A stretch of 64,000 nucleotides of DNA from NCBI GenBank assembly GCA_965221905.1, contig OZ244922.1, positions 192,001 to 256,000 of the forward strand, given 5' to 3'. The translations under genes were made by a program, and so were the position numbers. Below, one piece after another: positions 25,289 through 27,343 of the stretch; the stretch's first letter is position 1, and every line of letters begins with the position of its first letter. The stretch comes from Chloroflexota bacterium. Its GTDB lineage: Bacteria > Chloroflexota > UBA11872 > VXOZ01. The notes below the pieces were generated by a model. The model was not told where the DNA came from. It saw only the letters and a program-made list of their open reading frames with translations, and did not search any database.

Positions 25289-25777
25289 GGTCAAATGGGG
25301 TTAGGGTCAGCGAGTGCATGGCCGGGCATGGTAGCTATCTAAGTGCCAAGAAGCGGGGACAAGTGCCGTTCATTCTTCGACCCTTCGGCATGCTCAGGAC
25401 AGGCATGCTCAGGACGAACGGATACTGTTCCGTCGCCATGACGCAATGCCGGAGAGGCGGGGGACAAGCCCCTGTTCATCCTTCGACCCTTCGGCATGCT
25501 CAGGACAGGCAGGCTCAGGACGAACGGATACTATTTCGCTGCCATGACACGGTGCTGAGGAGCGGGGGACAAGCCCCGTTCAACCTTCGACAAGCTCAGG
25601 ACGAACGGATACTATTTCGCTGCCATGACACGGTGCTGAGGAGCGGGGGATAAGCCCCTGTTCATCCTTCGACAAGCTCAGGACGAACGGATACTGTTCC
25701 GCCATGACGCAATGGCGGGGAGGTGGGGGACAAGCCTCCCGTTCATCCTTCGACAGGCTCAGAAACTGTCTTGGGTG

Positions 25778-26713
25778 TCAAGGTGCGGTGGTTGGTTTCC
25801 AGGGCGACTGTGTATTGAGCATGCGGTTGAGGATGGTGAGCAGCTTGCGCATGCAGGCGGTAAGGGCCACTTTCTTGGGTTTGCCTGCGGCGCACAGTCG
25901 GTCATAGAAGATTTTGATCACCGGATTGAAGCGGGTTGCGACCAAGGTAGCCATGTAGAGACTGGCGCGCACCGGGGCTCTGCCGCCCCAGACGCTGCGC
26001 TTGCCCCGGTAGGTGCCGCTATCCCGGTTGTGGGGAGCGACCCCCACCAGCGCGGCAATCTGCTTGCGATTGAGCCTGCCCAGTTCCGGGAGTTCTGCCA
26101 GCAAGCAGGTAGCCGTAACCGGGCCAATTCCCGGTACGCTGGACAGCAGGTTCTCACGGGCACGCCACAGCGGGCTGGTTTGGACGAGCGCCGCCAGTTC
26201 CTGGTCCAGGCTATCGAGTTGCCGCCGCAGCCAGGCAATGTGGGACTTGATCTGGGGACGAACCCGCTTGGTGGCCCGGGGCAGACGGTTGCACTCGGCA
26301 GTCAGCATCGCGACCACCTGCCGCCGCCGCGCTACCAAGCCCCGCAACTCCTGCGTCTGCGCGTCCGGCAGTGCGCGCGCCTCCGGTTGCACCGCTTCTC
26401 CAAAGCGCGCCAGCATGCCTGCATCTATCGCGTCCGTCTTCGCCAACCGTCCCGTGGCGCGCGCAAAGTCCCGCACCTGCCGCGGGTTCACGACCGTCAC
26501 CTCCAGCCCCGCTGCCACTAACTCTCCTGCCACCGCGCTCTCCAGCCCACCCGTCGCTTCCAACACCACGCCCTGCGGCGCCAATGCAAGCAGACGCTCC
26601 CGCAGCTCCTCTATCCCTGCCGCATCGTTCCCAACCCACCACGACTGCGCTTCGTCAGCTACTCCCACGTCAAGCCGGTCTTGCGATACATCGATCCCCA
26701 CGTACACTGCCAT
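25778..26713 (-). CDS. IS110-family DEDD recombinase/transposase
   Basis: [19 protein letters not shown] (DEDD), SVPGIG, DSG, RKLL; GGAGG ribosome site. Confidence 0.96.
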
Positions 26714-26724
26714 TGCCTCCCTCC

Positions 26725-26895
26725 TGCTATACTATGGCTGGCGCTCCCATGCAGTCCCTGCCTTACGGATACGGACTTCGTGTCCCGGTAACTGTTCGGG
26801 CTCTGGGGGAGCTCGGCAGGTGTGGCGACCACTCTGAGCCACGGTCTGCCAGACCTAGGACGAACCGGTCTGCCACGCCTGCTCCCATTCTATCT
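26725..26895 (-). ncRNA. IS110 bridge RNA (target- and donor-binding loops)
   Basis: Guides GTTCGTCCT (26865-26857) and GGCTCAG (26840-26834) match both halves of the target; ACAGTTAC (26795-26788) and GTAAG (26766-26762) approximate the donor junction; ends approximate. Confidence 0.85.
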
Positions 26896-27343
26896 CCCTT
26901 TTCCAAGATATAAGGACGAACGGATACTATTTCGCTGCCATGACACGGTGCTGAGGAGCGGGGGACAAGCCTTCCGTTCAACCTTCGACAAGCTCAGGAC
27001 GAACGGATACTATTTCGCTGCCATGACACGGTGCTGAGGAGCGGGGGACAAGCCTCCCGTTCAACCTTCGACAAGCTCAGGACGAACGGATACTATTTCG
27101 CTGCCATGACATGGTGCTGAGGAGCGGGGGACAAGCCTTCCGTTCAACCTTCGACAAGCTTAGGACGAACGGATACTATTTCGCTGCCATGACACAATGC
27201 CGGAGAGGCGAGGGACAAGCCCCCGCGCTACGAGATGCTAATGAAGATTGAGCTTGCGCAGCCAAGGGAACATAAATTTAATTCAGGTGATAAGATTCGT
27301 GGAATGCTAACGGGCAAGCGGCAATCAGGCTAGTTACAAGGTT

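Follow-up and report, generated by a model that had tools for sequence, protein, structure and literature searches.

What interrupts the spacer between two genes read as hisH and hisA in a Chloroflexota bacterium, and what determines the place of the interruption? The question is raised by a window of 64,000 nucleotides (GenBank assembly GCA_965221905.1, contig OZ244922.1, positions 192,001 to 256,000), in which an element on the minus strand (25761-26914) accounts for a 1.15-kb interruption of that spacer. The element is very probably an intact insertion sequence (IS) of the IS110 group that encodes an IS621-type bridge recombinase together with its bridge RNA, and we infer that it is active. 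This reading rests on its anatomy, the identity of its insertion sites, the complementarity between guides and targets, the covariation of guides and stems, and the presence of the catalytic residues, all of which are observed here. The bridge RNAs of IS110 elements were first described in 2024, having been found with the help of thousands of orthologues. The element adds no new principle. Its value lies in offering a clean, fully decodable natural case from the Chloroflexota, accompanied within the genus by relatives with naturally reprogrammed target loops, a series that could be used to benchmark specificity or to supply a compact orthologue to try for genome editing. A literature search revealed, among the matches listed, no study of IS110 bridge RNAs in Chloroflexota; supplementary orthologue tables lay outside that search and may list the element or its relatives.

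Insertion sites and target guides

The genome consists of a single 3.52-Mb contig and holds six copies of the element at six different loci, which are 100% identical over 1154 bp, CT core at both junctions included, and share exactly the same ends. A tblastn search of this genome with the 311-residue protein returned nothing beyond them. All six occupy the same CT, four at CCGTTCGTC-CT-GAGCC and two at CCGTTCGCC-CT-GAGCC, and the consensus of the occupied sites, CCGTTCG[T/C]C-CT-GAGCC, is part of a palindromic host repeat. The sequence-only reading had named the mapping of further copies beforehand as a test of its proposal that the element is programmed against this repeat, and the proposal passed it, with no copy at an unrelated sequence. 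The CT is duplicated at both ends of all six copies, and their flanks rejoin to an intact GTTCG[TC]C-CT-GAGCC, which is found empty 61 times; there is no further target duplication and there are no terminal inverted repeats, as is characteristic of the IS110 group. Among the 120 empty GTTCG[TC]C-CT-GAGCN sites of the genome, the 61 that end in GAGCC are matched by 59 with another ending (42 of them GAGCT), as compared with six GAGCC sites out of six occupied ones (Fisher p = 0.020). The T variant, to which the left guide corresponds exactly, is over-used as well, since the occupied sites comprise four T and two C variants and the empty GAGCC sites 10 and 51, respectively (p = 0.015). A host repeat family of about 130 copies can be annotated as a landing pad for an IS.

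Read from the minus strand, the unit 25761-26914 is bounded on both sides by the CT core. At the left junction, GTTCGTC (26921-26915) is followed by CT (26914-26913) and then by TATAT; at the right junction, ACAGTTT (25769-25763) is followed by CT (25762-25761) and by GAGCC (25760-25756). GTTCGTC is the left half of the interrupted target and lies within the 5' arm of the host repeat, and GAGCC, its right half, begins the loop of the repeat. Core included, the left end of the element measures 201 nt and the right end 17 nt.

The left end contains the target-binding module (26816-26882, minus strand), which was delineated by a hand-drawn structure and the covariance model R1 described below. 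Its outer stem (26882-26867 with 26830-26816) is formed by GCAGGCGTGGCAGACC and GGTCGCCACACCTGC, with 15 pairs, one C.A mismatch and one bulged A. The internal loop carries GTTCGTCCT (26865-26857) on its 5' side and GGCTCAG (26840-26834) on its 3' side, with a 5-bp GGTCT/AGACC hairpin (26855-26843) between them. The first of these strings, GUUCGUCCU (26857-26865), is the left target guide (LTG) and is identical to the left target plus the core. It fits four of the element's own sites at 9/9 positions and the other two at 8/9 plus one rU:dG wobble, as expected from the C variant of those two sites. The second, GGCUCAG, is the right target guide (RTG); it is followed by the handshake nucleotides AG (26833-26832), the two together spanning 26832-26840, and is complementary to CT+GAGCC at 7/7 positions in all six copies. 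When the 199-nt left end was shuffled 300,000 times, the 9-mer appeared in 66 sequences, the 7-mer in 6113, and both together in none. The stem with an internal loop holding both strings had been described from the sequence alone and is present as described. A further target that the same reading had placed near 53060 exists as GTTCGTCCTGAGCT at 53059 (plus strand) but mismatches the RTG at the last position; a perfect empty 14-mer target lies at 25512-25525 (minus strand).

The strongest and, at the level of sequence comparison, decisive evidence comes from sister genomes, in which guides and insertion sites change together, exactly the modular behavior expected of a bridge RNA; the IS621 work describes bridge RNAs as modular in their target and donor loops. 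Forty-one genomes around the source were searched, and 16 copies of relatives were tabulated with the six own copies (n = 22). Full-length relatives with 74-100% nucleotide identity are found in 7 of the 17 same-genus genomes, the source genome (G000) counted. The element of genome G006 (78% identity, 10 copies) has the RTG AGCUCAG, one base off GGCUCAG, and all ten copies lie at CT-GAGCT, although that genome leaves 30 GAGCC sites, as well as 22 GAGCT sites, empty. Element type is thus fully associated with the last target base (6/0 versus 0/10, p = 1.2e-4), both repeat subfamilies being available empty in both genomes. In the elements of G003 (two copies), G002b, G004 and G008, the donor loop and the ends are kept and the first loop is replaced; their LTG is GCUGGCCCU or GAUGGCCCU, their RTG is GGGAGAG, and they are inserted at an unrelated ..GGCC-CT-CTCCC. 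Over the three guide classes, the RTG is complementary at 7/7 positions in 22 of 22 copies, and the LTG fits at 9/9 positions in 14, at 8/9 plus a wobble in three and at 7/9 in five. On balance, we favor the view that the G-to-A change of the outermost RTG base fully switches insertion from GAGCC (6/6) to GAGCT (10/10), such that a natural 7-nt right guide would discriminate in vivo at target position 14, beyond the reach of the 4-nt guide of IS621, in a very compact system, an element of 1152 bp with a 311-residue protein and an RNA that has no 5' stem-loop.

The same correspondence extends to more distant lineages. A scan of species-representative genomes, in which element ends were read from conserved motifs, identified 43 loci encoding relatives. 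The nearer ones occur in two Chloroflexota metagenome-assembled genomes (MAGs; 99% and 82% identity), a Burkholderiales MAG (56%) and a Planctomycetota MAG (53%), the farther ones in a Tepidisphaeraceae MAG (44%) and in many Acidobacteriaceae (34-41%). Locus L008 combines the LTG GTTCGCCCT with the flank GTTCGCC-CT, and L009 the RTG GCAGGAG with the right flank CT-CCTGC. The corresponding pairs are CCGGTAG and CT-ACCG in L010, CACGGAG and CT-CCGTG in L011, and CGCTCAG and CT-GAGCG in the acidobacterial elements, two CGTTCAG variants of which have copies at CT-GAAC. On the left side, the LTG ..TCATTCT of L040, L045 and L037 goes with the flank ..TCATT-CT, and the TCATCCT of their kin with TCATC-CT; in L047, both the LTG and the right donor guide (RDG) fit perfectly. 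Where the flank could be read, the LTG matches at 9/9 positions in 3 of 21 relatives, at 8/9 in two, at 7/9 in 12 and at 6/9 in four, and the RTG at 7/7 in 14 of 18 and at 6/7 in four. In other phyla, five more RTG classes each agree with the right flank of their own elements at six or seven of the seven positions, which makes eight classes with the three of the genus. Across nine guide classes, mean matches to cognate and non-cognate partners are 7.67 versus 5.68 of 9 for the LTG, 6.71 versus 4.50 of 7 for the RTG, and 7.43 versus 5.71 of 8 for the left donor guide (LDG), figures that are descriptive and not tests, as the rows are kin.

Other remnants and sites of this kind were seen in passing. 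Genomes G001, G003, G005, G007, G011 and G015 contain isolated matches, of 80-90% identity, to the first 58-100 nt or the last ~47 nt of the element only, which could represent solo ends or the remains of related elements. The distantly related Acidobacteriaceae loci (L012-L048; 34-41% identity at the protein level) are inserted at GTCATC-CT-GAGCG of an acidobacterial repeat, whose center TC-CT-GAGC is common with the Chloroflexota target, and the flank of L035 shows an empty copy of that motif.

Donor loop, RNA structure and recombinase

The putative donor-binding module (26745-26810, minus strand) follows the target-binding module and comprises outer stem segments, the LDG ACAGUUACC (26795-26787), a hairpin (26786-26772), the RDG CCGUAAG (26768-26762) and the handshake nucleotides GC (26761-26760). 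Within it lie ACAGTTAC (26795-26788) and GTAAG (26766-26762), the two strings that had been proposed to face the circle junction. In L009, L010, L011 and the acidobacterial elements, LDG and right end vary in concert; in L009, for example, the LDG ACGGTTGC goes with the right end ACGGTTG-CT. Among relatives with a readable flank, the LDG matches at 8/9 positions in 15 of 19 and at 7/9 in four, and the RDG at 7/7 in 13 of 22, at 6/7 in five, at 5/7 in two and at 4/7 in two, one of which is the window element. As regards the handshake, the A that follows the RTG can pair with donor T7 and not with target C7, and the G that follows the RDG has target C7 as a possible partner. In orthologues with donor G7 (L009, L010, L011 and most acidobacterial elements) the RTG is followed by C, and in L040, L034 and L039 by U. 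Judged by these bases, the handshake nucleotides can pair as the IS621 rule predicts, that is, with position 7 of the non-cognate DNA.

The terminal sequences suggest how the two ends might cooperate. The left end (26905-26914, minus strand) comprises the core CT (26914-13), the right donor TATAT (26912-08) and CTT (26907-05), and includes a -10-like TATCTT (26910-05). The right end (25761-25781, minus strand) comprises a -35-like TTGACA (25781-76), AAG (25772-70), the left donor ACAGTTT (25769-63) and the core CT (25762-61); TTGACA overlaps the TGA stop codon of the recombinase gene. AAG and CTT form a 3-bp subterminal inverted repeat that brackets the 14-bp donor, and these positions covary in relatives, being GAC/GTC in L009 and AAC/GTT in L011. 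Across the joined ends, TTGACA would stand 17 nt upstream of TATCTT, an arrangement that would agree with the junction promoter known from IS621. L008, L010, L011, the acidobacterial elements and the element of G006 have all retained a TTGAnn box at this distance of 13 nt from the core CT. In the integrated locus, the promoter scan detected no sigma-70-like site on the minus strand.

As folding without comparative data missed the two modules, the RNA was described by a hand-written structure of 35 pairs, which was turned into the covariance model R1 from the window and L008. In 23 of 26 sources, R1 has a single full-length match, located upstream of the recombinase gene; in the window it also gives one partial antisense match. 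In the resulting alignment, 93.9% of the cells are paired, as compared with 29-43% when the partners are slid by 1-3 columns. Compensatory, two-sided changes occur in 30 of the 35 pairs, including all 15 pairs of the outer stem of the target module (helices 1-2), and none of 500 shuffles reaches any of the observed measures. An RNA from the left end, with a target loop, then a donor loop, and covariation in relatives, is the IS621-type layout that the sequence-only reading had recognized.

The recombinase gene (25778-26713, minus strand) encodes 311 residues, with a RuvC-like DEDD domain, a coiled coil and a Tnp domain, and is preceded by AGGAGG (26725-20), 6 nt upstream of its ATG. Pfam detects PF01548 (E 2.7e-21, 76.4 bits against a cut-off of 29) and PF02371 (E 1.7e-19, 70.4 bits against a cut-off of 21.3). 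Residues 4-305 align with the transposases of IS621 (PDB 8wt6, E 2.4e-42) and of ISCro4 (PDB 9t56, E 1.6e-44), the latter being the best solved relative by sequence. Residues D8, E52, D94, D97 and S232-G233 fall on D11, E60, D102, D105 and S241-G242 of IS621, as determined by counting along the alignment and correcting for two extra residues that start the 8wt6 chain. All five catalytic residues are thus kept; in IS621, mutation of D11, E60, D102, D105 or S241 abolishes recombination. Both hallmarks of IS110 family recombinases, the DEDD tetrad in the RuvC-like domain and Ser-Gly in the Tnp domain, are present, and the earlier description of an IS110 element with an intact 311-residue recombinase stands.

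By analogy with IS621, the following course of events can be proposed. The element would excise as a circle, possibly a single-stranded one, in which its right and left ends are joined. The joined TTGACA and TATCTT would start an RNA of about 150 nt from the left end, and probably also expression of the recombinase behind it. The target loop of this RNA would hold both strands of GTTCGTC-CT-GAGCC, and its donor loop, with ACAGUUAC and GUAAG, the joined ends of the element itself. A recombinase tetramer, using its DEDD residues and serine, would then exchange strands at the shared CT: S232 would cut after CT, with the DEDD site across the dimer interface, before strand exchange and resolution of the junction. 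Insertion would fall between the 5' arm and the loop of the palindromic host repeat. The circle, promoter use, RNA expression, chemistry and present mobility are all inferred from the IS621 work.

Counter-evidence and rival explanations

Several observations weigh against this interpretation. The donor loop matches imperfectly: against ACAGTTT+CT, the LDG of the window element fits at 7/9 positions, position 7 and the second base of the core being mismatched, and against CT+TATAT the RDG forms four Watson-Crick pairs and one G.T of seven. The strings proposed for the second loop are present with a match that is partial only, and the notion of a directly readable guide applies to the target loop and only in part to the donor loop. 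The position-7 mismatch of the LDG is fixed in 22 of 22 same-genus copies. Cognate and non-cognate means for the RDG are barely apart (5.56 versus 4.95 of 7), which is attributed to the low variability of the right donor, and the LTG fits at only 6/9 positions in L010, L011, L029 and L044, with a mismatch at position 7 in L044. Thermodynamic folding is not favorable either. RNAfold of the 201-nt left end yields z = -1.38 with the guide loops paired internally, the fold with open loops reaches -50.1 kcal/mol as compared with -64.0 kcal/mol for the minimum free energy structure, which fills them, and RNAalifold on the plain MAFFT alignment A1 did not recover the two modules but paired the right donor with RDG columns. 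At E<=1, R1 has no match in three of the 26 sources (L034, L039 and the fragment L049). The pairing figures given above lean toward the structure, since the alignment was fitted to the model and has an antisense sequence among its rows, which moreover are related to one another; even so, compensatory changes can be seen plainly in both outer stems. An Rfam search of 25400-27300 found no sense-strand family for the bridge RNA, the only family being sX15, in antisense. At the sequence level, every feature of the IS110 group and of the IS621 type that could be tested is nevertheless found in the element, the donor-loop match being partial here.

Public sequencing data, examined as the assembled contigs of four runs (X18, X19, X1 and X6), bear on whether the element still moves. 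No joint of the right end to the left end occurs in these contigs, which cannot show its absence, and the contigs of the RNA-library runs X18 and X19 (labeled as sponge metagenome) cover only the stretches 25777-26115 and 26278-26673 of the open reading frame. Three of the four RNA-library contigs are identical to the element there and one has a single difference; DNA carry-over is possible, and as they do not reach the guide RNA region they are informative neither way. Run X1 yielded a 1169-bp contig over 25747-26915 at a depth of 411, against 70-139 in neighboring pieces, as expected from a multi-copy unit. Apparent "skip" joints in the run contigs were set aside as repeat artifacts, since their sides are all 21-28 letters within the repeat array.

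An element that is intact in sequence but immobile, its six copies the trace of a past burst and its guide RNA silent, would agree with the lack of a circle joint and of an RNA contig over the left end in the four runs, with the lack of a complete sigma-70-like promoter upstream of the RNA in the integrated state, and with the weak expression of IS621 RNA from genomic copies. We regard this as improbable. The six copies at six loci are identical throughout, the reading frame is open with all its catalytic residues, empty targets are left (10 perfect and 51 with one wobble), and copy numbers and sites differ between sister genomes, which points to recent movement; contig data, for their part, cannot show the absence of the joint or of the RNA. 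A different possibility is that the recombinase protein alone reads the site and that the left end carries its complementary stretches fortuitously, for instance as captured pieces of the host repeat. Repeat-like fragments in a mobile element that targets a repeat are conceivable, and a stem-loop in the target DNA of ISPpu10 has been reported to add specificity beyond base pairing. Yet the stretches change with the flanks in relatives that use unrelated targets (CTCCTGC in L009, CTACCG in L010, CTCCGTG in L011 and CTCTCCC in G003), they always occupy the same loops of a covarying structure, and a one-base difference in the guide tracks site use (6/0 versus 0/10), which leaves this explanation with hardly any likelihood. 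It is just as implausible that the element belongs to the IS1111 group, with a seekRNA-type guide in the right end downstream of the gene. The IS1111 group shares the protein superfamily, but here the right end has only 17 nt including the core, with a stop codon that overlaps the -35 box, the structured RNA lies upstream of the gene, and the subterminal repeat has 3 bp and not the 7-17 bp of that group.

Known systems, the sX15 family and the genomic setting

The bridge-recombinase reading can be set beside several described systems. With IS621 of Escherichia coli, the element shares a protein of three parts in which the DEDD residues and the serine align, the CT core on either side, an RNA in the left end whose target loop precedes the donor loop, and guides that both span the core, the LTG being like the top strand and the RTG complementary to it. 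The position-7 handshake logic, a -35-like box in the right end that is lost once the ends separate, and a target in a palindromic extragenic repeat are also common to both. The differences are of degree. The host is a Chloroflexota bacterium, the protein has 311 residues as compared with 326 in IS621, the natural RTG has 7 nt, core included, and not 4, the target is GTTCGTC-CT-GAGCC and not ATCAGGC-CT-AC, and the LDG mismatch at position 7 is, unlike in IS621, fixed in the same-genus copies. In IS621, the target-binding loop spans nucleotides 34-98 and is preceded by a 5' stem-loop (1-33); in the window element, only 32 nt separate the left core from the target module, 10 of which form the -10 region, and there is therefore no room for such a stem-loop. 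The ISCro4 transposase (PDB 9t56), compared at the level of the protein, has a 341-residue chain, against 311 residues here.

All insertions of ISPpu10 of Pseudomonas putida, also of the IS110 group, occupy copies of a single intergenic sequence able to form a stem-loop; at the window element, the crossover CT closes the 5' arm of the hairpin that the host repeat can form. The ISPpu10 stem-loop is a 5' extension of the target and has been tested experimentally, whereas the hairpin at the window element contains the target and has a putative role. Folded as DNA, the intact host repeat unit gives a hairpin of 11 pairs that encloses a loop of 11 nt (-6.5 kcal/mol, z = -2.41). The IS1111 group shares the recombinase family and the RNA-guided principle, and has its guide RNA in the right end and long subterminal repeats, in contrast to the left-end RNA, 17-nt right end and 3-bp repeat found here. 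A long left end with the guide RNA, a short right end and a subterminal repeat of 2-3 bp are described for the IS110 group.

The antisense match to Rfam RF02234 (sX15) covers 26736-26891 on the plus strand, full length (1-159), with 43.9 bits and E 1.7e-05, as compared with a gathering score of 55, and is opposite in strand to the recombinase and the bridge RNA. The other Rfam hits, ybhL, D12-methyl and ilvB-OMG (E 0.9-2.8), were dismissed as chance. sX15 is a small RNA of Xanthomonadaceae that was found with its complementary asX7 on plasmid pXCV183, with ten homologues in Stenotrophomonas maltophilia. R1 matches the sX15 locus of pXCV183 at 63.2 bits and E 7.9e-12 (1884-2029 of L094, minus strand; NC_007507 116383-116528), again on the strand opposite to sX15. 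As both matches are antisense to sX15, the Rfam family seems to be the reverse complement of a bridge-RNA homologue; from sequence similarity, sX15/asX7 appears to be a bridge-RNA locus whose family was built on the antisense strand. The annotated 98-residue protein beside the pXCV183 locus has no Pfam match, and among the literature matches listed no paper links sX15/asX7 with an IS110 bridge RNA. If the reverse-complement reading holds, the sX15 annotation would be worth correcting.

In the window, the element splits a tandem array that is flanked by a glutamine amidotransferase gene (24641-25288, PF00117) and a His_biosynth gene (27344-28069, PF00977), which are read as hisH and hisA from the gene order. 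The spacer of about 2 kb contains about seven tandem units of 81-83 bp, each a palindromic target repeat plus a spacer of 45-50 nt. To the right of the element, 3.1 copies of 81-bp units (25513-25762) include the perfect empty target mentioned above; to its left, 3.7 copies of 83-bp units (26913-27221) have unoccupied target motifs that end in GAGCT or AAGCT. Among the units of the spacer array, those that match the guide by ending in GAGCC are one occupied and one empty (25512-25525), with no others. A sigma-70-like match (26985-27013, plus strand; TCGACA, 17 nt, TACTAT) in one repeat unit faces hisA and is a consensus match only.

Elsewhere in the genome, a degenerate seventh IS110-type frame (G000:C1:352624-352932, L101) gives a PF01548 match of 37.9 bits, has two in-frame TGA codons and lies below tblastn similarity. 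At G000:C1:2566000-2566460, fifteen head-to-tail units of 26 bp each contain GTTCGCCCTGAGCT. Immediately before them, a stretch resembling the decayed right end of a related element shows a TTGAAA box, a left donor other than that of the window element, and a stop at the place of the penultimate tryptophan codon of the window gene.

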